Notes under the pieces: generated by a model
Databases searched by the model: none
Seen by the model: the letters and a program-made list of their open reading frames with translations, nothing else
Told to the model about the DNA's origin: nothing
Made by a program: the position numbers and the translations under genes
Origin: an uncultured bacterium
GTDB lineage: Bacteria > Verrucomicrobiota > Kiritimatiellia > RFP12 > UBA1067
DNA length: 64,000 nt
Direction of reading: 5' to 3'
Assembly: GCA_902800055.1 (NCBI GenBank)
Contig: CADCCW010000005.1
Location: 27,217-91,216 of the forward strand
In this document: piece by piece, positions 1 to 11,132 of the stretch
How positions within the stretch are numbered: position 1 is the first letter of the stretch
How the letters are laid out: the number at the start of each line of letters is the position of its first letter

Positions 1-849
1 AAACGCCCCGCTCGGCAGCTGCTTCGACGCAAGGAACTTAAGTCCGCGCTCAATCGACCGGTCGACGTCGTCCGCCTCCGGCGAGAACGTCGAGATGCCG
101 CCCACCGTGCGCCGCAGCCCGCCGCCGGCGTCGACCACCGCCGCGGCTGACGCCGCCACCGGAGCCTCGTCCCCGGATCGGAGCACGGCGACCGTGCCCG
201 CGGCAAGCGTGGCGAGCGAGAGAAACGCGGCGAAGCAGGCGGTCCAGCTGTGGCGGAAGAGCCACGAGTTGCGCGGACGCGTCGCCCGCACCAGGCGGTC
301 GGCGAAGTCCGGCGACAGCTCGGTGCCGCAGAGCATGTCGTAGAGCGCGTCCTTCGCGTAGTGGAGGCGGCTGCGGACCGTGCCCTCGGGGATGCCGACG
401 ATCTTGGCGATCTCCGGCGTCGAGAGGTCTTCGAAATAGCGCAGCACCACGACCTCGCGGTAGTTTTCGGGCAGCTTCCTCACCGCCGTGCGCACCGCCT
501 CGGCGCTGCCGCGGAAGGCGAACTCCTCGAGCGGATTCGGCGACTTGTCCTCAACCTCGGGCAGCTCGTCGTTCGGGACTACGGTCTCCTTCCTCGCAGC
601 GCGTCGGCGCAGGTCCATGCGGTGGAAGTTGAGGAGGATGGTGTAGACCCAGTAGTAGAACGAGCCGGTGGGACGGAAGTCGTCAATCCGCTCGATGGCG
701 CGCTCGAAGGCACGGAACACGAGGTCCTCGGCCTCGTGGGCGTCCTGGCAGAGCATCCTGGCGGCGGCCTCGAGGCGCGGACGGTACTCCGCCACCAGGC
801 GCCTGGCGCCCAGCTCGCGGTCTGCCCGAATCTCTTCGTATATTTCCAT
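1..849 (-). CDS. ECF (sigma-70 family) RNA polymerase sigma factor with C-terminal TM helix and start of a prenyltransferase/squalene-oxidase-repeat-like domain; runs off the left edge
   Basis: Manual translation from ATG 849 (absent from the ORF track because there is no stop in the window): MEIYEEIRADRELG...AEDLVFRAF...FYYWVYTILLNFHRMDLRR (region 2), LPENYREVVVLRYFEDLSTPEIAKIVGIPEGTVRSRLHYAKDAL (region 4), hydrophobic WTACFAAFLSLATLAAGTVAVL, then IERGLKFLASKQLPSGAF. Open for 283 codons to position 1. Confidence 0.85.
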   Translation of the reverse strand, partial: MEIYEEIRADRELGARRLVAEYRPRLEAAARMLCQDAHEAEDLVFRAFERAIERIDDFRPTGSFYYWVYTILLNFHRMDLRRRAARKETVVPNDELPEVEDKSPNPLEEFAFRGSAEAVRTAVRKLPENYREVVVLRYFEDLSTPEIAKIVGIPEGTVRSRLHYAKDALYDMLCGTELSPDFADRLVRATRPRNSWLFRHSWTACFAAFLSLATLAAGTVAVLRSGDEAPVAASAAAVVDAGGGLRRTVGGISTFSPEADDVDRSIERGLKFLASKQLPSGAF

Positions 850-909
850 CTCCAATCTACACAATGCACGCCGCGCCAAAAACGTTCAACCGCCAATCGT
901 CGTTAGCGG

Positions 910-2670
910 CTATGGGGACGGGGGCTTGTACTTGAGCGCCGTGCCGCCGGCGGCGGCGGTCTTGTAGGACTGCGTGCGCGGGTCGAAGTAGACCACTTTG
1001 ACCAACGGCGTCTTCGGCGCGCCGTCAGCCACGAAGAACCGGCGGTACTCGATGGTGCTGCCGTTCTCGTTGCGCGACAGCTCGAATGCCGATCCGGGCG
1101 GCATGTACGACCGCGGCACATAGCCGTTCGTCGGGTACATCCGGTAGGTGATGCAGACGACGTCGTTCGTCTCCACCGTCAGGATGTCGCAGAGCTCGTG
1201 GATACGCAGGCCCTCCGAGACGACGCCAGCGTAGCCGTCGGGCCGCCCGGCCGACGGCGGCGGCGCGATCTCCAGCGCGATCGCCGGCGCGTCGGCGTGG
1301 AACGAGCGGGAGAACGACATCGAGAAGCGCCCGCCGCGCGCAACGCGCCCCGCGGCCATGCCGTCCACGCCGAACGAGACGCGCCCGCGGAAAGGAACGT
1401 CGTACCTCACCGGTATCGCCAGGCGCTTGACGACGTTGGAGGGATTGGCGCTCTTGGCATCCGTGAGCACGCGCACCTTGCCAGTCACCTTGATCCCGAA
1501 CGACTCCGACGGCGAGACGCGCACGTTCGAGAGCGTCACCGTTGCGGGCGCGTCCAGCGAAACGATGAACTCGAACGACTCGCCGACCGTCGGGCGGGCC
1601 TTGCTGGCCGAGACCGAGGCGACCACCCGCACCGGTTCCACCTCCTCCTTCTCGAAGAGCCCCAGTCCGCCGAAGCCAGCGCGCATCTGGCGCATCCGCT
1701 CCTCCATCTCGCGGATCTGCCGATCCATTTGCTCGAAGACGTCCCCGGCACGGGACTGCGCGGGGACGAGCAGCGCGGCAAGGAGCGCCACGCACGCGAG
1801 CGCGCGGACGATGCGCCCGAAAAGCCAGAAGGCGAACGCGAGCGCGGCAAGCACGCCGGCGACGACGGCGAGGCGGCCTGCCCAGGCGTACCTGAGAAGC
1901 GGACGCAGCACCTGGCGCCAGACCGGCAGCTCCACGGCCGGATTCTCGTACCTGACCGCGAGCGCGGCGACGATGTCCCGCTCCACCTCCGGCGTCTGGC
2001 CAATGCGCCACTCGAGCGAGCGCAGCACCGAAAGCGCGCGCGACCATTCGCCGGCGAGGATGGCGCAGCGCGCCTCGTTGAGACGCGCCTCGGGGAAGTC
2101 GAACTCCCTGAAGGCGTCCGCCGTCGGCTTTGTGCACGCCTTGCGCCAGGCGAAGAGGGCGTCCTCGCCAACTGCCGCGGCATCCGTTCCCCACGGCACC
2201 GATCCGAGCTCGGTCACCAGCTCCGCCGGCCGCGGCATTTCATTGAAGTCCTCGCCCATTCCCACCACCACCACCTCGGCGCCGCGCTTCGCGTGCACGG
2301 GGATCTCGTTCGAGCGCACCATCCGCTCGGAGCCGTCCGTTCCGCGATAGGAGAACTCCAGTCCCGGGAACCAGAGCACGCCCTCGCGCATCGGCCGCAC
2401 CCGGTAGGTTAGCCGCCGCGCGTCGCGGTAGGTGTCGGTCTTGGCGCTCACGTCGTCCAGCTTCCAGTCCTTCGGCGAGACCGCCTTGGAGAGCGCCGGC
2501 GGATGCAGGTTGCGGAAGTCGGCCTCGCCGATGAAGTCGACGGTAAGGACGAGCGGATCCCCTACCTTCACGTTGTTGGCGTCGAAGAACGCGCGCGCCC
2601 GCAATTCGCCGCCCGTGACCCCGGTCAGTTCAATCGCCGCCAGCAGAAAACATCCCGCGAAATTCATCAT
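910..2670 (-). CDS. BatD-like exported protein
   Basis: 586 aa ORF with signal-like N-terminus, BatD-type beta segments (VKVGDPLVLTVDF; LTYRVRPMREGVLWFPGLEFSY), central TM segment and a second similar domain. Confidence 0.6.
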   Translation of the reverse strand: MMNFAGCFLLAAIELTGVTGGELRARAFFDANNVKVGDPLVLTVDFIGEADFRNLHPPALSKAVSPKDWKLDDVSAKTDTYRDARRLTYRVRPMREGVLWFPGLEFSYRGTDGSERMVRSNEIPVHAKRGAEVVVVGMGEDFNEMPRPAELVTELGSVPWGTDAAAVGEDALFAWRKACTKPTADAFREFDFPEARLNEARCAILAGEWSRALSVLRSLEWRIGQTPEVERDIVAALAVRYENPAVELPVWRQVLRPLLRYAWAGRLAVVAGVLAALAFAFWLFGRIVRALACVALLAALLVPAQSRAGDVFEQMDRQIREMEERMRQMRAGFGGLGLFEKEEVEPVRVVASVSASKARPTVGESFEFIVSLDAPATVTLSNVRVSPSESFGIKVTGKVRVLTDAKSANPSNVVKRLAIPVRYDVPFRGRVSFGVDGMAAGRVARGGRFSMSFSRSFHADAPAIALEIAPPPSAGRPDGYAGVVSEGLRIHELCDILTVETNDVVCITYRMYPTNGYVPRSYMPPGSAFELSRNENGSTIEYRRFFVADGAPKTPLVKVVYFDPRTQSYKTAAAGGTALKYKPPSP

Positions 2671-2685
2671 ACCTCCATCGCGTCA

Positions 2686-3558
2686 TCAATGCGGCTTGAC
2701 CGTAAACTGCACCGGCACGCCGTTCTTGCGGTATTTCTCGATGAACTCCGGTGCCAACGCCGGTATCGCACCGACGCGCTCGGCGGCGGCCTTGAGCGAC
2801 TGGTCCGCCCGGATGTCGCCAGAGCTCTTCTCGATCTTGTGGGCGACAATTCTGCCGCCGCCGCCGAACCACACCCGGATAGTCATCGGCTTCAAGGTGT
2901 CGGTCCACGGCGGAACATCCCACTTCCGCTCAAACGCCTCCTTGATCAGAGAATAGGCCAGCTGCTCGGCATTGGAGGCGAGATTGGTCGACTTGCCCGG
3001 CTTGTATCCCTGGTTGAGCAGCTTGGCGATTTCGGCGTCGGAAAGTGTCTTCTTGTCAGTGCGGCCATTCGGCTGCGGCTTGGTCGGCTCCTTGACGATG
3101 GTCGTCTTGTCGACCACCTTAGCCCTTTCGCGCATCTGCTTTATCCGCTCCTCGCGCAGCTCCTTCGCCGTCTTCTCCGGCTTCTCCGGCTTCTTGGGCT
3201 CCTCTTTCTTCTTCTCGGCCTTCGCCACCACGTTGGTGACGATTTTCTCGAGCTCCTTCGGCGGATCAGGTTTCTTGACCGCCGGTTTCGGCTTGGGCTT
3301 GGGCTTCGGCGGGGGCGGCGGCTCCGGTTTCTTCAGCGGCGGAGGTTCGTCCTCCTTGCCGTCGAGGTTCTCGACCACCACCACGGTCAGGTCGATGGGG
3401 ATGATTTCCTCCTCCTTGTCGAAGAGACCATGGAAGACCGCGAAGACCCAGAAGCCGGCGAAGAGCGCCACGTGCAGCGCGACCGCGATGCACAAGTTGG
3501 CGGCGCCCAGCACCTTGGGCTCGTTCTGTCCGCAGCTCTCTGGCCTCCAAAGTTCCAT
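2686..3558 (-). CDS. TolA/TonB-family energy transducer
   Basis: N-terminal TM (IAVALHVALFAGFWVF), Pro/Lys-rich linker (PPPPPKPKPKPKP), C-terminal TonB_2-like domain (SSGDIRADQSLKAAAE); follows tolQ/tolR-type genes. Confidence 0.8.
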   Translation of the reverse strand: MELWRPESCGQNEPKVLGAANLCIAVALHVALFAGFWVFAVFHGLFDKEEEIIPIDLTVVVVENLDGKEDEPPPLKKPEPPPPPKPKPKPKPAVKKPDPPKELEKIVTNVVAKAEKKKEEPKKPEKPEKTAKELREERIKQMRERAKVVDKTTIVKEPTKPQPNGRTDKKTLSDAEIAKLLNQGYKPGKSTNLASNAEQLAYSLIKEAFERKWDVPPWTDTLKPMTIRVWFGGGGRIVAHKIEKSSGDIRADQSLKAAAERVGAIPALAPEFIEKYRKNGVPVQFTVKPH

Positions 3559-3572
3559 CGTCCGGCTGGTCC

Positions 3573-3989
3573 TCAGTTCTCCTTGCTGACGAGGCCGAGG
3601 TGGCGCACGTTCGCGTCCTTCGCCACCTTGACCACCTCGTAGACGTCACCGTAGCCGACGCGGACGTCGCCGCGAACCAGCACGCTGACGTCGGGATCGT
3701 CGGCGACCGCCTTCGCAAGCCGCGCCTTGAGGTCTTCCATCGTGACCGGCGCCTCGCCGATGAAGAGCTTGCCGACGGAATCGACGGTGATGGAGAAGTT
3801 CTTCTTCTTGTCGTTCTGCGCCTTCTCGGTCTTGCCGACCGGCAGCAGCACGTGGATCGACTGCTCCAGCGTCGGCAGCGTGACGATGAACACCACCAGC
3901 AGGATGAAGGTGAGGTCGATGAGCGAGTTCATGTTGATCTCGGCCTTCGACCCCTCGCGCCTTGCGCGAGCTCTGCGCCGCATCGACAT
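3573..3989 (-). CDS. ExbD/TolR family protein
   Basis: EINMNSLIDLTFILLVVFIVT TM motif and VLVRGDVRVGYGDVYEVV; start placed at ATG 3989, just after the upstream stop at 3994. Confidence 0.85.
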   Translation of the reverse strand: MSMRRRARARREGSKAEINMNSLIDLTFILLVVFIVTLPTLEQSIHVLLPVGKTEKAQNDKKKNFSITVDSVGKLFIGEAPVTMEDLKARLAKAVADDPDVSVLVRGDVRVGYGDVYEVVKVAKDANVRHLGLVSKEN

Positions 3990-3993
3990 CGCC

Positions 3994-4713
3994 TCAAGCC
4001 CCCCTTCCCTGGAACTCGCAGGCAATGCGCCCGATGAGCTCGTCGGCGAAGCCCTCCATGTCGGCGCTGATGGCGCGGATCAGGGCGTTCAGGCGGGTGA
4101 ACGCCGCCATGCCGGGGATGGCGACGAGCAGGCCGACCACCGTCGTCACCAGCGCGGCGGAAATCGACGGCGCGATTGTCGCGAGGTTGGCGCTGCCGGC
4201 GGCGCCCATCTCCGCGAACGCGTCGAGTACGCCCCACACCGTGCCGAGCAGGCCCAGCATCGGCGCGAGCGCAACAACGGTGGAGATGAGCCCCATTCCG
4301 TATCCGATCCTGATCTCCTCCTCGTCGAGCACGTGCTCGCAGGTGCCGCGCACCAGCTCGATCTCGCGCGCCGTGAGCGCCGCCGCGCCCTCAGACTGGC
4401 GGCCGACGAGCAGCGAGCGGACGTCGGGCGTGAGCAGCTTGAGGAGCCGCTCGCACGTCTCCTTGTAGATGCCCTCGACGCCGGTGCGGACGTTCGGACG
4501 CCGCTGCAGGTAGTATTCGAGCACATCGCCGCAGGTGGAGAAGTCGCGCAGGAACCGCCGCGTCGCGTGCGCGTACGCGAGCAAGGTCCTCCACTTGCCG
4601 ATCACGGCGGCCACCATCAGGACCGACCCCGCGAGCTGCGCGAGCACGATGCCCTGCCCCATGAAGTTCGACTTCGCGAACCCGTCTATCAGCGAACTTG
4701 CCAAGAGTGCCAT
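3994..4713 (-). CDS. MotA/TolQ/ExbB proton channel protein
   Basis: APMLGLLGTVWGVLDAF and ISAALVTTVVGLLVAIP signature helices. Confidence 0.9.
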   Translation of the reverse strand: MALLASSLIDGFAKSNFMGQGIVLAQLAGSVLMVAAVIGKWRTLLAYAHATRRFLRDFSTCGDVLEYYLQRRPNVRTGVEGIYKETCERLLKLLTPDVRSLLVGRQSEGAAALTAREIELVRGTCEHVLDEEEIRIGYGMGLISTVVALAPMLGLLGTVWGVLDAFAEMGAAGSANLATIAPSISAALVTTVVGLLVAIPGMAAFTRLNALIRAISADMEGFADELIGRIACEFQGRGA

Positions 4714-5445
4714 TTACTGCTGCTCCTTCCGTTGTTTGCGTTGGTTGTCGTTTGAAGCCATTTCTTCCCGCTCCGCGCGCGGCGCGCGCCTCGCCACCCC
4801 TTCGCGCGGCTCCGCCTCCAGCGGCACCGTGAGCGGCTCAAGCGGCGCGTCGTCGCCGGCGAGCGCCTCCCACGCGGCGGCGTGGATCGGCAGCCCCTGC
4901 TCGCGGAACATCTCCTCGAACTCCGTCCACACCTCCTTCGGCCGCGGCATCGGATCGACGCGCCTGAAGCGCGCGTCCGCGGCGAATCCGTCGCACACCT
5001 CGCCGAAGTACTCTTCGTGGTCGGTCGCGAACTCGATCTTCCCGCCGGTCTCGAGGCGCTTCCACAGCGCGTTGCGGAAGAGCGGACCGAAGAGCCGGTG
5101 CGAATGGTGCTTCTTCTTCGGCCACGGGTCGGGGAAGAACACGTAGACGCGGCGGATGTGGTGGGCGGGCAGCAGGTAGTGGAAGGTGTAGAGCGCCTCG
5201 AGCCGCAGCACCGCCGCGTTGTCCACGTGCCCGCGCCGGCACTTGCCGTCGAAGAGCCGCACGCGCTCGAGCATTCGCTCGATGCCGAGGAAGTCGCAGT
5301 CCGGGTTGGCCGCTGCGCGCGCGACGAGGAACCGGCCCTTGCCGCAGCCGACCTCCACCTCCAGCGGACGCGAAAGGTCGAACTCGATGGGCCGCGTGAT
5401 GTCCTTGTGGTGCAACACGTGGCTGTCTGGAGTTACCCCGACCAT
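4714..5445 (-). CDS. trmB: tRNA (guanine-N7)-methyltransferase
   Basis: EVEVGCGKGRF (SAM motif), GIE, FFPDPWPKKKHHSHRL, FATDHEEY. Start uncertain; the ORF-track start at 5622 lies upstream of the promoter motif. Confidence 0.88.
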   Translation of the reverse strand: MVGVTPDSHVLHHKDITRPIEFDLSRPLEVEVGCGKGRFLVARAAANPDCDFLGIERMLERVRLFDGKCRRGHVDNAAVLRLEALYTFHYLLPAHHIRRVYVFFPDPWPKKKHHSHRLFGPLFRNALWKRLETGGKIEFATDHEEYFGEVCDGFAADARFRRVDPMPRPKEVWTEFEEMFREQGLPIHAAAWEALAGDDAPLEPLTVPLEAEPREGVARRAPRAEREEMASNDNQRKQRKEQQ

Positions 5446-5524
5446 CAGCTTTTGTCCAACCTCTCTCCCCTTGATTTGCCCTTTGCCGCCGGGACGGCGC
5501 CGCGCCGTTCCGTTTAATACGCGC

Positions 5525-5533
5525 ATTATACCA
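5525..5533 (-). promoter_or_regulatory. Extended -10 promoter TGGTATAAT (trmB-tolQRA-batD operon)
   Basis: Plus-strand ATTATACCA in the intergenic region, back-to-back with the aspS promoter. Confidence 0.75.
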
Positions 5534-5592
5534 AAAATCTCCGCCCCGCGAATATGGAATGTCGCTTTCGGCGACGCTAAGCGATGGCGAAA

Positions 5593-5603
5593 TGTGGTAT
5601 AAT
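5593..5603 (+). promoter_or_regulatory. Extended -10 promoter TGTGGTATAAT (aspS)
   Basis: Exact TRTGnTATAAT 36 nt before the aspS ATG; AGGAG SD at about 5622-5626. Confidence 0.8.
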
Positions 5604-5639
5604 ACGCGCTTGTAAAGTTCACAGGAGAAAGACAATCCC

Positions 5640-7451
5640 ATGCATCCGTATCGCACCCATACCTGCAACGAGCTCCGCGCCAGCGACGCGGGCAAAACCG
5701 TTAGGCTTTCCGGCTGGATGTTCCGCCTCAGAGACCACGGCGGCATCCTCTTCGTCGACCTTCGCGACCACTACGGCCTCACGCAGATCGTCGTCCATCC
5801 GTCCAGAAGCTTCTTCGGCCTCGTCGAGAAGGCGCACCTGGAGTCGGTCATCACCGTGACCGGTGAGGTGAAGCTGAGGACGCCCGACACGATCAACCCC
5901 GAGCTCCCGACCGGCGAGATCGAGATCGAGGCGAACGAGCTCGTGATGGAGTCCGCCTCGCAGGTCACTCCCCTCTACATCCCAGACGAGAAGGCCGACG
6001 AGTCGGAGGACGTGCGCCTCCAGTACCGCTTCCTCGACCTCCGCCGCGAGAAGCTGCACAAGAACATCATCCTCAGGAGCGACGTCATCCGCTTCCTCCG
6101 GGAGAAGATGTGGGAAAAGGGATTCCACGAGTTCCAGACGCCGATCCTCACCGCCTCATCGCCCGAGGGCGCGCGCGACTACCTGGTGCCGAGCCGCATC
6201 CACCGCGGCATGTTCTATGCCCTTCCGCAGGCGCCGCAGATGTTCAAGCAGCTCCTGATGGTGTCTGGCTTCGACAAGTACTTCCAGATCGCGCCGTGCT
6301 TCCGCGACGAAGCCGCGCGCGCCGACCGCTCGCCCGGCGAGTTCTACCAGATGGACATCGAGATGTCATACGTGACGCAGGACGAGATCTTCGCCGTCGT
6401 CGAGGACGTGGTGAGCGCGACGTTCAGGAAGTTCTCGACCTGGGCGTGCAACGAGGCGCCCTGGCCTAGGATCAAGTACCGCGACGCAATGATGACCTAC
6501 GGCTCGGACAAGCCGGACCTCAGGAACCCCCTCAAGTGGATCGACATGTCCGACTTCTTCGCGAAGGCCGACTTCAAGGCGTTCGCCGCGTGCGTCAAGA
6601 ACGGCGGGCTCGTCAAGGGCCTGCTCGTCAAGGGAATCGTCGGCGTCGAGACCCGCACCTGGTTCGACAAGCGCGAGGCGTTCGTCAAGGAGAACGGCGG
6701 CAAGGGCCTCGGCTACATCAGCTGGACCAAGGAAGGCGAGCTCAAGGGGCCGATCGCGAAGTTCCTCTCCGCCGAGCAGCTCGAGGAGATGAAGAAGCTC
6801 GCGGGCATGGAGCCGACCGACGCGCTCTTCTTCATGGCCGCCGACGTCGACGAGTGCAACCGCCTCTCCGGCCTCGTCCGCACCGACATCGCCGACCACA
6901 TGACGAACGACATCCGCGAGAAGAACTGCTACAAGTTCTGCTGGATCGTCGACTTCCCGTTCTTCGAGAAGGACCCCGAGACCGGCAAGATCATCTTCTC
7001 GCACAACCCCTTCTCGATGCCGCAGGGCGGGCTCGAGGCGCTGAACACCAAGGACCCGCTCTCCATCGAGGCGTACCAGTACGACGTCGTCTGCAACGGC
7101 ATCGAGCTCTCGTCGGGCGCGATCCGCAACCACCAGGTCGAGGTGATGTACAAGGCGTTCGAGATCGCGGGCTACACCAAGGACGACGTCGTGAAGAAGT
7201 TCGGCGCCCTCCACCGCGCGTTCCAGTTCGGCGCGCCGCCGCACGGCGGCATCGCCCCGGGCGTGGACCGCATGGTGATGCTCCTCACCGATACGCCGAA
7301 CATCCGCGAGGTGATCGCCTTCCCGATGAACCAGAAGGCGCAGGACCTCCTGATGGGCGCACCGAACTACGTGACCGAGCAGCAGCTCCGCGAGCTCCAC
7401 ATCAAGATCCGCGGCACCGGCGCCGAGGCGGCCCAGGCGTCCAACGCCTGA
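5640..7451 (+). CDS. aspS: Aspartyl-tRNA synthetase
   Basis: [22 protein letters not shown], motif 1 [55 protein letters not shown]. Confidence 0.98.
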
Positions 7452-7471: not shown

Positions 7472-8266
7472 TTATTCGGCGATAAGGTCGAGGGTGTCGA
7501 GGTCGATGACACCCTCGAAGACCTTCTTTACCGGGCCGGTCAGGGTGACGGACGAGAATTTCGACCCGTCGAACTCGCCGTCCACCACCAGCTCATATCC
7601 CTCGGAGGTGGACACCTGCACCGGAAAGGACAGCCCGTGGCCCGCCACGCCGACGCAGGCGACCGCCACCGCGCCGGTGCCGCACGCGCCGGTCTCCGCC
7701 TCCACCCCGCGCTCGTAGGTGCGCACCGAGACCCGGTGCGGCGGACGGTAGACGACGAAGTCCACGTTCGTCCCGTGCGGCGCAAACCGCTCCGAAAGCC
7801 GGATCCTGCGCCCCTCGCCGTCGACGTCGACCTTGGCGAGGCTCTTCACCGGCACGATGAAGTGCGGGACGCCGGAGTTCACGAAGTCTCCGTCGAGGCC
7901 CTTCGGGTCCGGCATCCACACCTTGACCTGGCTCTCGTCGAGGATTTCCGCGTCCACCAGACCCGCGGCGGTCTCGAAGCACATCACCTTGCCCTTCGCC
8001 GCGCCGATTTCGCGGGCGAAGGCGGCGACGCACCGCGCGCCGTTGCCGCAGAGCTCCGCCTCGGAGCCGTCGGGGTTGAAGAACCTCATCGAGAAGTCGG
8101 CGCGGGACGACTTGCCGACCAGGATCACCCCCTCGCAGCCGACGCCGATCCGCCGCGCCGCCATCGCGGCGATCCGCCGGCCGTCGCAGGGAAACTCGCC
8201 GTCGCGGTCGTCGACCATTATGAAGTCGTTGCCCGCGCCATGCATCTTGGTGAACTTCATCTTCAT
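7472..8266 (-). CDS. dapF: Diaminopimelate epimerase
   Basis: FTKMHGAGNDF, ELCGNGARC, NSGVPHF, GTNVDF, RTYERGVEAETGACGTGAVA; ATG overlaps the upstream TGA. Confidence 0.96.
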   Translation of the reverse strand: MKMKFTKMHGAGNDFIMVDDRDGEFPCDGRRIAAMAARRIGVGCEGVILVGKSSRADFSMRFFNPDGSEAELCGNGARCVAAFAREIGAAKGKVMCFETAAGLVDAEILDESQVKVWMPDPKGLDGDFVNSGVPHFIVPVKSLAKVDVDGEGRRIRLSERFAPHGTNVDFVVYRPPHRVSVRTYERGVEAETGACGTGAVAVACVGVAGHGLSFPVQVSTSEGYELVVDGEFDGSKFSSVTLTGPVKKVFEGVIDLDTLDLIAE

Positions 8267-10461
8267 CAGAACCACCATCCTTTCGGGATCGGGAGCTCCT
8301 CGCCGTGCGTCATGCGCACGATGTCGGAGAGCACGTTGAAAGCCTCGTCGAGCACCACGTCGTCGCGCGAGCGCTCGTTGCGGCGGCGCCGCAGGGGCGG
8401 GAGGTCGGCGTCCTCCTCGTCGTCTCCTCCGTCCACGCCGTCGTCCTCTTCGTCGCCGTCGTCAAGCTCGCGGAGCGCGCGGTCGGCCGCGGCGAGATCT
8501 CTGCGCTCGGCATACCCGAGCGGAACCTCCTCGCGGTCGGCGAGGTCCTTCATCCCCTTCACGTTCGCCATGTGGCGCGAGTAGCGCTCGTTGCCCGAAA
8601 GCCGCGCGTCGGAAAGCCGCTTGAGGTCGGGAACGAGGGCGTGCATGTTCCAGCACAGGCGGTAGTCGGCGGGCGCGATGCGCGAGAACGGCAGCGCGTA
8701 GGTGAGCTTGTCCTCGCCGATGTCGAGCGAGTCGAGCAGCGACGGCAGGTGGATGTCGGCGGCCACGCCCTCGAGCTGGGTGGAGCGGCCGTCAATGCGG
8801 TAGAAGCGCGCGGTCGTGACCTTGCAGGAGCCGTACTTGTCGGGTCCAAGCCCCATCACCGTCTGCACCGTGCCCTTGCCGTGGGTACGCGCGTCTCCGA
8901 CCACCACCGCGCGGCCGGTGTCCTGCAAGTGGCCGGCCACGATCTCCGACGCGCTCGCGCTCGCGCGGTCGACCAGCACCACCAGCGGGCGGCGAAACGC
9001 CACCGGGTTGCCGGCGGGGATCGGCAGGCAGCCCGTCTGGCGGATGTCCTGTATCTGCACCACCGGGCCGGACTGCACGAAGAGCGCGGATAGCATCACC
9101 GCCTCGCGCAGCGAGCCGCCGCCGTTGCCCCTGAGGTCAAGGACAAGACCCGACACCCCCTCGGCGTTGAAGTCGGCGATCAGCTTGGCGACGTCCATTG
9201 CGCAACTGCGGTAGCCCTCGTCGAACGGACGCCGGTCCATAGTGCCGTAGAACCCGGGCAGGTTGACGTAGCCGAAGCGGTTGGTGACGCCGTCGAGGGC
9301 GACCGTCTCAACCCTGCCGGTGGCGGCCTGGTCCTCGAGCTTGATCTCGTCGCGGACGAGCTCGATCAGCTTCTTCGTAGCGCCGGTAGGATCGGAGCGG
9401 GGGACGATCTCGAGGGTGACGCGCGTCCCCTTGGGCCCGCGGATTTTCCTGATCGACTTCTTCATCGGCTGCCACATGACGTCTTCCATCTCGCCGTCCT
9501 GCTGCTGCACGCCGATGATCTTGTCGCCGCGCTTGATGCGCCCGTCGCGGTCGCAGGGGCTGCCGGGCAGCACCTCAACGACCTTCAGCGCCCCGTCGTC
9601 CATCGACAGCGTCGCCCCGATGCCGCAGAGGGTGAGGTTCATCTCCATGTCGAAGTCCTCGCGGGTGGTCGGGCTCATATAGTCGGAGTGCGGGTCGTAG
9701 GCGCGGCAGAACGCGGAGAGGTAGCGCTGAAGCACCGCCTCCTCGTCAGGCTCGGCCATCACCACCGCATACTGGCGGTACTTCTTGACCAGGTCGGCGG
9801 CAATCGTGCGGACGCGGTTGGTGGCGGTGTTGGCGGCGACGGCGGCGGAGTTCGTGGAGACGACGGCGACGTCATTCGTGGCGACGACGACGTTTGTGAC
9901 GGCGACAGCGTTGGTGGCGGACGCGGAATTCTCCACGTCGAGATCCTGGTTCACGAGGATCGACAGCACCTCGTTCTTCATCCGGCGGCGCCAGTGGTCC
10001 TCGGCCTCGGCCACGGTCTTCGGCCAGGGAGCGTCCTTGCGGCGCACGCGGTACGTCTCGTTGGTGGAGAAGTCGAACTCGGCCGTCATCAGCAGGTTAG
10101 TGGCGAACGCGAGCCGCTCGTCGAGGCGGCGGACATAGAGGTTGTACACCTCGAAGCCGAAGTCGACGTTGCCAGACTTGAGCTCGTCGTCAATTGAATC
10201 CATCCGCCCCGAAAGCCGGTCGAGGTCCTCCTGGAGGAACACGGAGTGGTCGAAGTCGTAGTAGGAGACGAGGTTCGTCCATGCCCGACGCGAGATCTCG
10301 TCGTCGGCGACGCGCTGCAGCACATGCGCCTTCTGCATCGTGTTCACCAGCCGCTCCGCGATGCGCCCGTCGTAGTTGCGCGGCTCGAGGTCGGTGGCCG
10401 CCGCAGCGGCCGCCGCCATACACGCAACCGCGAAAATCGTTGCCGTAGCCTTCGTCTCCAT
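8266..10461 (-). CDS. prc: Tail-specific (carboxy-terminal processing) protease, S41A, with PDZ
   Basis: Signal peptide METKATATIFAVACMAAAAAA, YDPHSDYM, GIGATL (PDZ), LVLDLRGNGGGSL, ASASEIVAG (catalytic Ser), THGKGTVQ (Lys). True start is 10461; the ORF-track extension overlaps the NERD gene. Confidence 0.92.
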   Translation of the reverse strand: METKATATIFAVACMAAAAAAATDLEPRNYDGRIAERLVNTMQKAHVLQRVADDEISRRAWTNLVSYYDFDHSVFLQEDLDRLSGRMDSIDDELKSGNVDFGFEVYNLYVRRLDERLAFATNLLMTAEFDFSTNETYRVRRKDAPWPKTVAEAEDHWRRRMKNEVLSILVNQDLDVENSASATNAVAVTNVVVATNDVAVVSTNSAAVAANTATNRVRTIAADLVKKYRQYAVVMAEPDEEAVLQRYLSAFCRAYDPHSDYMSPTTREDFDMEMNLTLCGIGATLSMDDGALKVVEVLPGSPCDRDGRIKRGDKIIGVQQQDGEMEDVMWQPMKKSIRKIRGPKGTRVTLEIVPRSDPTGATKKLIELVRDEIKLEDQAATGRVETVALDGVTNRFGYVNLPGFYGTMDRRPFDEGYRSCAMDVAKLIADFNAEGVSGLVLDLRGNGGGSLREAVMLSALFVQSGPVVQIQDIRQTGCLPIPAGNPVAFRRPLVVLVDRASASASEIVAGHLQDTGRAVVVGDARTHGKGTVQTVMGLGPDKYGSCKVTTARFYRIDGRSTQLEGVAADIHLPSLLDSLDIGEDKLTYALPFSRIAPADYRLCWNMHALVPDLKRLSDARLSGNERYSRHMANVKGMKDLADREEVPLGYAERRDLAAADRALRELDDGDEEDDGVDGGDDEEDADLPPLRRRRNERSRDDVVLDEAFNVLSDIVRMTHGEELPIPKGWWF

Positions 10462-11132
10462 CAGCCGTTCTCCATCAACCGCACCAGCCGGTCGAGCTCC
10501 GCCGGCGGCAGCACCGTCCGCACGGACGAGAAGCTGCTCTCGAGGAAGTTCGAGTTGATTATCACCACGCCGTTCGACTCGGCGACCTTGGCCTCGAAGG
10601 TGTCGGACGCGAAGGCGAGGACCGGCGTCACCTCGCCCTTCCAGCCGCGCTTGGCGAGCTCGTTCTTCACCGCCTCCGCCTCCTTCAGCACCTGCTTGAG
10701 CGGCGGGCGGTCGGTAAGCTGGCCGTCGAGCAGGATGTGCCCGTCGTCGAGGGTGACGCGCCCGTTCCAGAACTTGGTCTCGATCGCGAAGACGCCGGCC
10801 GGCCCCACCACCACGTGGTCGACGTGGCGGCCGCAGGCGACGAAGTCGTTGAAGACATGGTAGCCGTCGGGCAGCTTCTGGAGGATGCCGGCGACGCGCT
10901 CCTCGCCGCGCGCGCCCTTGAAGTAGCGCTCCACGTGGCGGAGCCCGCGCGCCAGCGTCACCGCGCACCAGACCGCCGCGACCACGAAGAGCGCGCACCC
11001 TACGACCGGGTAGCGGAGCGCCAGCGCCGCCGAGTAGCCGGCGACGAACACCCCGGCGAAAAGCGGCCACAGCCCGAACACCGTTCCCTTTACCCGGGCC
11101 CACTCGCCCGCCACTCCGTGGATTCCTGCCAT
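10461..11132 (-). CDS. NERD (nuclease-related domain) membrane protein
   Basis: Two TM helices, then GARGEERVAGIL...VDHVVVGPAGVFAIETKFWNG typical of NERD. Confidence 0.8.
   Translation of the reverse strand: MAGIHGVAGEWARVKGTVFGLWPLFAGVFVAGYSAALALRYPVVGCALFVVAAVWCAVTLARGLRHVERYFKGARGEERVAGILQKLPDGYHVFNDFVACGRHVDHVVVGPAGVFAIETKFWNGRVTLDDGHILLDGQLTDRPPLKQVLKEAEAVKNELAKRGWKGEVTPVLAFASDTFEAKVAESNGVVIINSNFLESSFSSVRTVLPPAELDRLVRLMENG

Follow-up and report, generated by a model that had tools for sequence, protein, structure and literature searches.

An ECF sigma factor fused through a single membrane helix to a terpene-cyclase-type toroid heads a MoxR-DUF58-BatA operon in uncultured Kiritimatiellia

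Why should a bacterial sigma factor stand at the front of a polypeptide that runs on, without a stop codon, through a membrane helix and into a domain of a quite different family? The question is raised by one end of a 64,000-nucleotide stretch of DNA (here called the window, positions 27217-91216 of contig C5, CADCCW010000005.1, of assembly GCA_902800055.1) from an uncultured bacterium of the Kiritimatiellia. The source genome, G000, is a metagenome-assembled genome (MAG) of 2.29 Mb in 61 contigs, 90% complete, whose closest public relatives are rumen "RUG" MAGs, and near-identical DNA has turned up in many studies of the gut metagenomes of cattle, goats and sheep. The gene encodes an extracytoplasmic function (ECF) sigma factor joined to a single transmembrane (TM) helix and an alpha/alpha toroid; the fusion is real and conserved, and its gene opens a translationally coupled operon. 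The reading that we prefer, at a probability of roughly 60%, is that of an autoregulated, membrane-sequestered ECF sigma fused to the toroid, freed by regulated proteolysis and derived from an ancestral pair formed by a sigma and a TM-toroid protein.

The coding sequence (CDS) lies on the minus strand at C5:26287-28065, which corresponds to positions -929..849 of the window, and specifies 592 amino acids (aa). The window holds the first 283 codons (1..849, minus strand), the 929 further bases lying before its start, up to G000:C5:26287. A sequence-only reading of the window had described the gene as missed by the track of open reading frames (ORFs); this proved correct, the minus-strand ORF 1..879 staying open at the window edge, and the gene is absent from the track only because it runs off the window. 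That reading had also proposed to retrieve the full CDS from the adjoining DNA, which yielded the protein analyzed here; the peptide DVDRSIERGLKFLASKQLPSGAF that it quoted corresponds to residues 261-283 (window 69-1). The start codon is the ATG at 849-847, opening MEIYEE, since the more distal TTG at 879 falls inside a conserved promoter (see below) and all orthologues open MEI/MEL-YEE; TTG 879 was ruled out as a start for these reasons.

Because the organism is known only from MAGs and some relatives have split versions of the gene, one might suspect a pseudogene here, or two genes run together by an error of sequencing or assembly. Over the entire CDS, a 7.6-kb contig from an independent study differs by 40 substitutions and is free of gaps, and no indels were found in any run from at least four studies, independent bovine and goat assemblies among them. 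A homologue search returned about 95 clusters of 555 to 607 aa, 55 to 96% identical over their full length, which share the frame with seven genomes; the fusion is kept in 70 protein clusters of the alignment, and the protein sequence across the joint is conserved as well. An artefact is effectively refuted by these data. A hidden stop or frameshift near window positions 300-330, for which the earlier reading had advised a check of the reads, was ruled out by the indel-free contigs from independent runs and by the frame kept in the 7 genomes, and the fusion stands. Its distribution is narrow. The full-length form was found in 7 of 151 genomes of the same family (five of genus g1 and two of genus g5) and was absent from a phylum-wide sample of 300 other genomes, in which stand-alone toroid homologues (29 to 58% identity) are widespread. 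Among 1.84 billion representatives clustered at 50% identity, the fused family is reduced to P0010 as its sole representative, alongside the split form P0103.

The N-terminal part (residues 1 to 175) is an ECF (group 4) sigma-70 factor of the expected core size. Sigma region 2 (residues 18-84, window 598..798, minus strand) matches Pfam PF04542 (Sigma70_r2) with 41.6 to 43 bits against a cut-off of 24. Region 4 (residues 117-169, window 343..501, minus strand) matches PF04545 and PF08281 (Sigma70_r4_2), the latter with 63.7 to 65.4 bits against 25.7, and the NCBIfam model TIGR02937 (sigma70-ECF) covers residues 16-171 with 98.7 bits against 42.9. No Pfam match to regions 1 or 3 was found in the protein, which fits the ECF layout, and all NCBIfam equivalog and subfamily models stayed far below their cut-offs for the sigma part. 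An AlphaFold2 run on a 95-sequence alignment gave both sigma domains a predicted local distance difference test (pLDDT) score of 70 to 89, with 70 to 85 in region 2, and both Foldseek and phmmer found them most similar to Mycobacterium tuberculosis SigE, Bacillus subtilis SigW, AlgU and RpoE. The earlier proposal of complete regions 2 and 4 in frame with a linker, a TM helix and a repeat domain is borne out by Pfam and NCBIfam for the sigma regions, by hydropathy for the TM helix and, as described below, by fold and profile matches for the repeat domain.

Only about 24 residues, in one helix, separate sigma region 4 from the membrane, so that there is no full anti-sigma domain; a class I domain has four helices and about 80 to 90 cytoplasmic residues. 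Residues 176-198 (TELSPDFADRLVRATRPRNSWLF) hold no Cys/His motif and no zf-HC2 match, and neither FecR nor any other anti-sigma Pfam family was detected in the protein, even at E values up to 1. The helix itself (residues 176-194, TELSPDFADRLVRATRPRN, window 268..324, minus strand) is conserved in the alignment. Mean column identity among 70 fused proteins is 0.77 in this segment, compared with 0.80 to 0.82 in the sigma domains, 0.54 in the TM helix and 0.42 in the linker that follows it, and the same helix is common to the N-terminal regions of the split partners P0102 and P0103. AlphaFold2 places it at residues 180-189 with low confidence. We take it to resemble the last pre-TM helix of class I anti-sigma domains, such as that of RsiW, as a lead only; it may be left over from a sigma-binding element, serve a protease or adaptor as a site, or act as a spacer.

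Hydropathy has a single peak, at about residues 199-224, and the TM helix is placed at about residues 199-221 (window 187..255, minus strand; Kyte-Doolittle value of 2.1), with a highly conserved Gly in it; the corresponding AlphaFold2 helix covers residues 195-216. It is followed by a variable linker (residues 222-256, window 82..186, minus strand) that is predicted to be periplasmic and disordered (AlphaFold2 residues 217-255, pLDDT of <50) and is a candidate region for site-1 cleavage. One polypeptide therefore carries the sigma, one TM helix and, beyond it, the toroid. A periplasmic position of the toroid, as the sequence-only reading had assumed for its extracytoplasmic domain, is supported by close homologues in which a cleavable-looking signal peptide takes the place of the sigma-TM part, and these secreted forms are the best evidence for that topology.

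The toroid begins inside the window (residues 257-283 of 257-577, window 1..81, minus strand, including the QW-like repeat RGLKFLASKQLPSGAF). AlphaFold2 models residues 257-577 as a 12-helix domain with pLDDT of >90, folded as an (alpha/alpha)6 toroid. The top Foldseek matches in the PDB are the single-domain squalene-hopene-cyclase-like structures 8PAK and 8PAJ (TM-score of 0.60 to 0.62, 17% identity), on which a literature search turned up no publication, followed by the classical squalene-hopene cyclase (SHC) 1SQC, drimenyl-diphosphate synthase (SsDMS) and MstE; other (alpha/alpha)6 toroids (GH76, GH8 and AprG) match at a similar level, with TM-scores of about 0.6. At the sequence level a profile was needed, since a PDB search with a single toroid protein gave only spurious P450 matches; the profile of 21 stand-alone homologues matched the repeats of SsDMS, SHC and lanosterol synthase with E values of 8e-6 to 3e-3. 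The earlier assignment to the QW-type repeats of prenyltransferases and squalene cyclases is thus right at the superfamily level, and, as modeled, the domain consists of one 12-helix toroid that belongs to the terpene-cyclase/prenyltransferase superfamily. The Pfam check suggested with that assignment gave a mixed picture. Of the 21 homologues, 13 match PF13243 at E values up to 0.01 and 4 match PF00432; the window protein itself falls short, in that SQHop_cyclase_C on residues 355-456 reaches 24.6 bits, under the gathering cut-off of 26.1. One partial homologue is named "terpene cyclase/mutase family protein [Kiritimatiellae]" in its source database, and the others carry no such name.

Could the C-terminal domain then be an active class II terpene cyclase or prenyltransferase working on an envelope isoprenoid, with the sigma fusion incidental? 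Besides the likeness of fold and repeats to SHC, SsDMS and MstE, the alignment of homologues would favor this, as H351, E477 and H482 are invariant, C479 and C414 are nearly so, and the segment DSDLSCSGW contains an invariant D411. However, the class II acid motif DxDD is incomplete in that same segment (D409-S-D411-L412, the last Asp missing), the Pfam scores lie at or below the gathering cut-off, GH76 and GH8 fit the fold equally well, and the predicted periplasmic site is away from the cytoplasmic prenyl diphosphates. Moreover, conservation of the fusion and its repeated origin (see below) show that it is not incidental. We consider an enzyme of this kind very improbable. The toroid is equally conserved in fused and unfused proteins (58% mean column identity, with many invariant polar residues). 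Behind its last helix, the C-terminal sequence VPYRxLPIYQRDETVD (residues 566-582, C5:26320-26370) is invariant or nearly so in fused, split and secreted homologues, and relatives at 35% identity keep a YLPIFQR form; a plug, a partner site and a sorting signal are candidate roles for it.

Where the fusion came from can be followed in close relatives, which contain the same toroid in three architectures. In the fused form, exemplified by the window gene, sigma, TM helix and toroid are one chain. In the split form (P0102 at loci L007 and L008, P0103 at L009), a separate ECF sigma of 175 to 195 aa, which aligns end to end with residues 1-175 of the fusion at 56 to 59% identity, is followed after 27 to 39 nucleotides (nt) by a TM-toroid partner of 442 to 444 aa, about 58% identical to the fusion, in which a cytoplasmic N terminus of about 50 residues leads to the juxtamembrane motif, the TM helix and the toroid. 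The third form (P0098, P0104, P0110 and others) is a secreted stand-alone toroid of 353 to 380 aa, 60 to 70% identical, that starts with a signal-peptide-like segment and has no sigma gene close by. Compared with the split form, the fusion lacks the stop codon of the sigma gene, the intervening spacer and roughly 24 codons at the start of the partner gene. The sequence-only reading had named a stop hidden by a sequencing error, with homologues encoded as two separate genes, as what would overturn it; two genes are indeed present in a minority (P0102 and P0103), with no sequencing error involved, and these pairs clarify the origin of the fusion and do not refute it.

A maximum-likelihood tree of the toroid domain, of moderate support and rooted by midpoint only, places a secreted clade on one side of the root. 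The fused forms fall in a clade whose base is unresolved and includes the split pair, and a few secreted forms (P0098, P0099 and P0101) are nested within the fused clade. This topology suggests gain of a sigma/TM module, then fusion, and then occasional secondary loss, and it points to descent of the fusion from a sigma and TM-toroid pair of the kind that persists in relatives. Joining happened more than once. In two distantly related proteins, P0217 (660 aa) and P0256 (640 aa), Sigma70_r2 and Sigma70_r4 matches and hydrophobic segments are likewise combined with a homologous toroid (33% identity and E value of 6e-42 for P0217). Their sigma parts gave no BLASTP alignment with that of the window protein, so that ECF sigmas and this toroid family have been brought together on at least two occasions.

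The genomic context ties the protein to a known type of operon. The TGA of the sigma-toroid gene overlaps the ATG of moxR (ATGA; AAATGAACG), and MoxR (AAA_3) is followed on the same strand by DUF58, a 1339-aa BatA-N/VWA protein and a 1039-aa protein without a Pfam match, the DUF58-BatA and BatA-1039-aa junctions overlapping as well. With MoxR, DUF58 and BatA-N/VWA adjacent on one strand, this is a Bat/MoxR-VWA operon. MoxR and DUF58 follow all 7 fused genes; MoxR comes after the split genes, too, with DUF58 and BatA also present in L007 and partial or divergent arrangements at the other loci. Directly upstream is a BatD-like gene (586 aa, window 910..2670, minus strand, weak Pfam BatD match), 60 nt away from the sigma gene, preceded by a run of genes at 2686..5622 on the same strand that comprises a TonB_2-like gene (2686-3558), ExbD (3573-4025), ExbB (3994-4713) and TrmB (4714-5622) and diverges from aspS (5640-7451, plus strand). 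A Tol/Ton-type energizer is thereby physically joined to the Bat/MoxR cluster (window 910-5622, minus strand). Metatranscriptome contigs with 95 to 99% identity span the gene, the moxR junction and the BatD-like junction, which fits expression and co-transcription; these are assembled contigs that lack 5' ends and may include DNA.

This context also bears on what the toroid does. At locus L006, a secreted homologue is followed by MoxR, DUF58 and BatA with no sigma nearby, and such sigma-free operons make it likely that the toroid is a working part of the MoxR/BatA system. The alpha-barrel that the sequence-only reading took for a sensor is there, and it is probably a working part as well as a sensor. 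If the toroid is a component that is also reported on, the signal might be assembly or occupancy rather than an external ligand. In its strict version this becomes an assembly-feedback device, in which the toroid would serve the MoxR/DUF58/BatA machine as a structural or enzymatic subunit and its unassembled copies would be broken down; the sigma set free in this way would step up expression of the operon until the machine is complete. Secreted toroids in MoxR/BatA clusters without a sigma (L006 and L075), the lack of a second toroid copy in G000, the translational coupling to moxR and the equal conservation of fused and unfused toroids all favor it, whereas within 1.5 kb of 14 stand-alone toroid genes there is neither MoxR nor DUF58 nor a sigma. 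It also overlaps the proteolytic-release model and differs only in the nature of the signal. We regard the strict version as unlikely. Locus L075 (G372:C124:15000-30533) is a second Bat-type cluster, in a genome that also carries the fused gene, in which the promoter motif described below is followed by BatA (1367 aa), a giant ORF of at most 2874 aa and a toroid paralogue, 357 aa long and secreted.

What would the sigma transcribe? An ECF-type promoter candidate, TGAAC-N16-GCATT, lies at window 863..888 (minus strand), 13 nt upstream of the ATG. The sequence TTGAAC-N16-GCATT is present in 10 of 10 sigma loci (7 fused and 3 split), ending 13 to 19 nt before the ATG between flanks that cannot be aligned, and the sigma probably drives its own operon. 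Such spacing implies a very short leader and a nearly leaderless transcript. In the window (850-863, minus strand), only 13 nt lie between the -10-like GCATT and the ATG, which a GGAG abuts. The exact motif has one match in the window. In related genomes, its count exceeded that of a reversed control in five of six cases (G397, 2 versus 0; G423, 3 versus 1; G434, 10 versus 1; G372, 17 versus 2; and G360, 13 versus 2), the sixth being G403 (3 versus 6).

The second exact site in G000 is intergenic (C17:11181, minus strand) and lies 39 nt upstream of another Exb operon, at C17:7523-11181 (L065, minus strand), with the order ExbB-ExbD-ExbD-152-aa protein-DUF4159 (540 aa). A CGAAC variant at C12:20408 precedes the gene of a 2571-aa secreted giant protein (C12:20451-28166, L064:152-7867, plus strand), whose sole Pfam match is YfiO-like, at residues 2382-2464. 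An orthologue of this giant protein in genus g5 (29% identical, E value of 2e-45) has the exact motif upstream. In G372, the giant gene and an ExbB paralogue are contiguous on one strand behind one motif, the ExbB having no promoter of its own, while in G000 the giant gene and the ExbB operon are separated, with a motif ahead of each; among the comparative arguments for one regulon, this is the strongest. In G360, the motif also stands ahead of a BatA paralogue, a site that seems orthologous to the one upstream of the L075 BatA in G372. No ExbB orthologue was found in G434 or G360.

From the architecture, the split relatives and the likeness to envelope-stress sigmas controlled by regulated intramembrane proteolysis, we infer that the sigma is sequestered at the membrane and released by proteolysis. 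In the intact protein, the sigma would be held at the membrane and largely inactive, while, on the periplasmic side, the toroid would participate in the MoxR/VWA/BatA envelope system or monitor it. If the state of the toroid changes, the linker may become exposed to a site-1 protease, after which an RseP-type site-2 protease would cleave the TM helix, and the freed sigma would activate its own operon, the giant secreted protein and the ExbB-ExbD-DUF4159 operon. Candidate proteases are encoded by an RseP-type M50 gene at C2:17078 and a Prc gene at window 8266-10464.

Several observations weigh against this scheme. RseP and Prc are near-universal and their presence is not specific evidence, and a ClpXP-type step after site-2 cleavage could also destroy the sigma. 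The juxtamembrane helix has a pLDDT of only 48 to 62 in the AlphaFold2 model, which does not demonstrate intramolecular inhibition. As for the promoter, G000 has 2 exact matches against about 1.6 expected from base composition, so that it is position and conservation across genomes that speak for a regulon; for the ExbB site, conservation is limited to near-identical genomes, with no clean motif upstream of ExbB in G403, and the RNA contigs read through from the BatD-like gene with no transcription start seen at the motif.

Alternatively, the sigma might act tethered and uncleaved, recruiting RNA polymerase at the membrane to the promoters of envelope operons in the manner of ToxR or CadC, with the toroid modulating it through conformation or oligomerization. 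There is indeed no anti-sigma domain between sigma region 4 and the TM helix, and all the predicted targets encode membrane or secreted proteins. The lineage also clearly tolerates tethering. Ten ECF-size sigmas of G000 pass TIGR02937, and 5 of them are the N-terminal part of a long TM-bearing ORF (604, at least 469, 752, 1053 and 1138 aa), some with the TM segment only about 10 residues past region 4, TM-fused sigmas thus being habitual in this lineage. On the other hand, a tether of 10 to 24 residues would leave little room for region 4 to reach the beta-flap and -35 DNA at the membrane. IutY, the one fused sigma that the review names as characterized, requires proteolytic release (PMC8999054), and membrane sequestration is itself reported to be inhibitory for BldN-RsbN (PMC8103513). 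On balance, a sigma that works without cleavage appears improbable to us, and we retain proteolytic release as the preferred reading.

The four further fused ECFs of G000 (C24:12164-15577, minus strand; C35:8834-11992, minus strand; C7:54288-56543, plus strand; and C37:19699-21105, plus strand) are single open frames with a layout of their own. The TM segment comes about 10 residues past region 4 and is followed by an acidic, Pro/Ala-rich linker of 80 to 110 residues, an internal Met, a signal-peptide-like hydrophobic stretch and a large beta-rich domain, weakly CBM35-like. Two hydrophobic segments present a topology puzzle: either the large domain is cytoplasmic, or the second segment is not a TM helix, or an internal start gives a separate secreted protein. 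Orthologues of this type in G397 and G423 keep open frames of 1069 to 1076 aa.

A bolder extrapolation, which we offer as doubtful, is that TM-anchored sigmas are a main signaling mode in rumen Kiritimatiellia and act unreleased, with transcription of envelope operons taking place at the membrane and with the toroid as both a machine subunit and a reporter and as a general periplasmic input module in Planctomycetes-Verrucomicrobia-Chlamydiae (PVC) bacteria. Were the toroid both subunit and reporter, the operon would sense its own assembly; were the family fused to ECFs repeatedly as a general module, it would represent an undescribed periplasmic input for sigma signaling in PVC bacteria. More immediately, the locus links a regulator to the poorly understood MoxR-DUF58-BatA/VWA systems and to an uncharacterized periplasmic branch of the terpene-cyclase fold, and the connection of regulator and periplasmic toroid suggests what these operons respond to. 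It is also a natural experiment, close relatives having the same sigma, periplasmic domain and downstream operon in fused, split and sigma-less signal-peptide forms. With these three forms, a conserved promoter and a small predicted regulon, the effect of fusion on sigma/anti-sigma signaling is directly testable.

How does this system compare with known ones? In the canonical pairs RpoE-RseA, SigW-RsiW and AlgU-MucA, a single-pass anti-sigma factor is cleaved by DegS or Prc and by RseP. The sigma of the window protein is similar to theirs, and the split P0102 and P0103 share their exact two-gene layout. Unlike these pairs, the window gene joins both proteins covalently, and the cytoplasmic part of the partner, with about 50 residues when split and about 24 when fused, is shorter than a class I anti-sigma domain of about 80 to 90. 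The toroid shares with the terpene-cyclase/prenyltransferase superfamily the 12-helix (alpha/alpha)6 barrel and QW-like repeats (TM-score of 0.62 to 8PAK, profile E value of about 1e-5 for SsDMS) and differs from it in being single-domain and putatively periplasmic, at 12 to 17% identity and with an incomplete DxDD. The operon resembles the Bat/MoxR-VWA "aerotolerance" operons, with MoxR, DUF58 and BatA-N/VWA downstream and a BatD-like gene upstream; none of the operons described in the literature searched begins with a sigma or a toroid.

The sequence-only reading knew of no characterized example of the pairing, and no description of it turned up in the ECF classification paper, in reviews or in full-text literature searches, which found no paper on an ECF sigma-toroid pairing. 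In the ECF reclassification, C-terminal extensions are listed for 19 groups (PMC7826278); MoxR, a squalene/prenyl domain and Kiritimatiellae are unmentioned in the main texts of PMC7826278 and PMC8999054. Among predicted systems, the closest are the actinobacterial groups ECF48, ECF52 and ECF53, which have TM segments and extracytoplasmic extensions and a predicted proteolytic activation, the ectodomain of SCO4117 being carbohydrate-binding (PMC8999054). They likewise fuse the sigma to a TM segment and an extracytoplasmic domain, but they have a zinc-finger (ZAS-like, HxxxCxxC) segment before the TM helix that the window protein is without, and phylum, ectodomain and genomic context all differ.

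Sensor-fused ECF sigmas have been predicted in several groups, and only IutY is named as experimentally characterized (PMC8999054). IutY of Pseudomonas putida (ECF243) is a FecI-like sigma/anti-sigma hybrid activated by Prc (site-1) and RseP (site-2) (PMC8999054), and it is the closest characterized system. Both proteins begin with an ECF sigma and continue in one chain through a single TM helix to a periplasmic domain, and neither has a separate anti-sigma gene. IutY has a FecR-type module and receives its signal via a TonB-dependent transducer, whereas the window protein has no FecR domain, carries a toroid as its ectodomain behind a cytoplasmic spacer of about 24 residues and heads a MoxR-DUF58-BatA operon. 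The principle of a fused sigma freed by proteolysis is thus already established, and the pairing with a toroid is an added variation on it.

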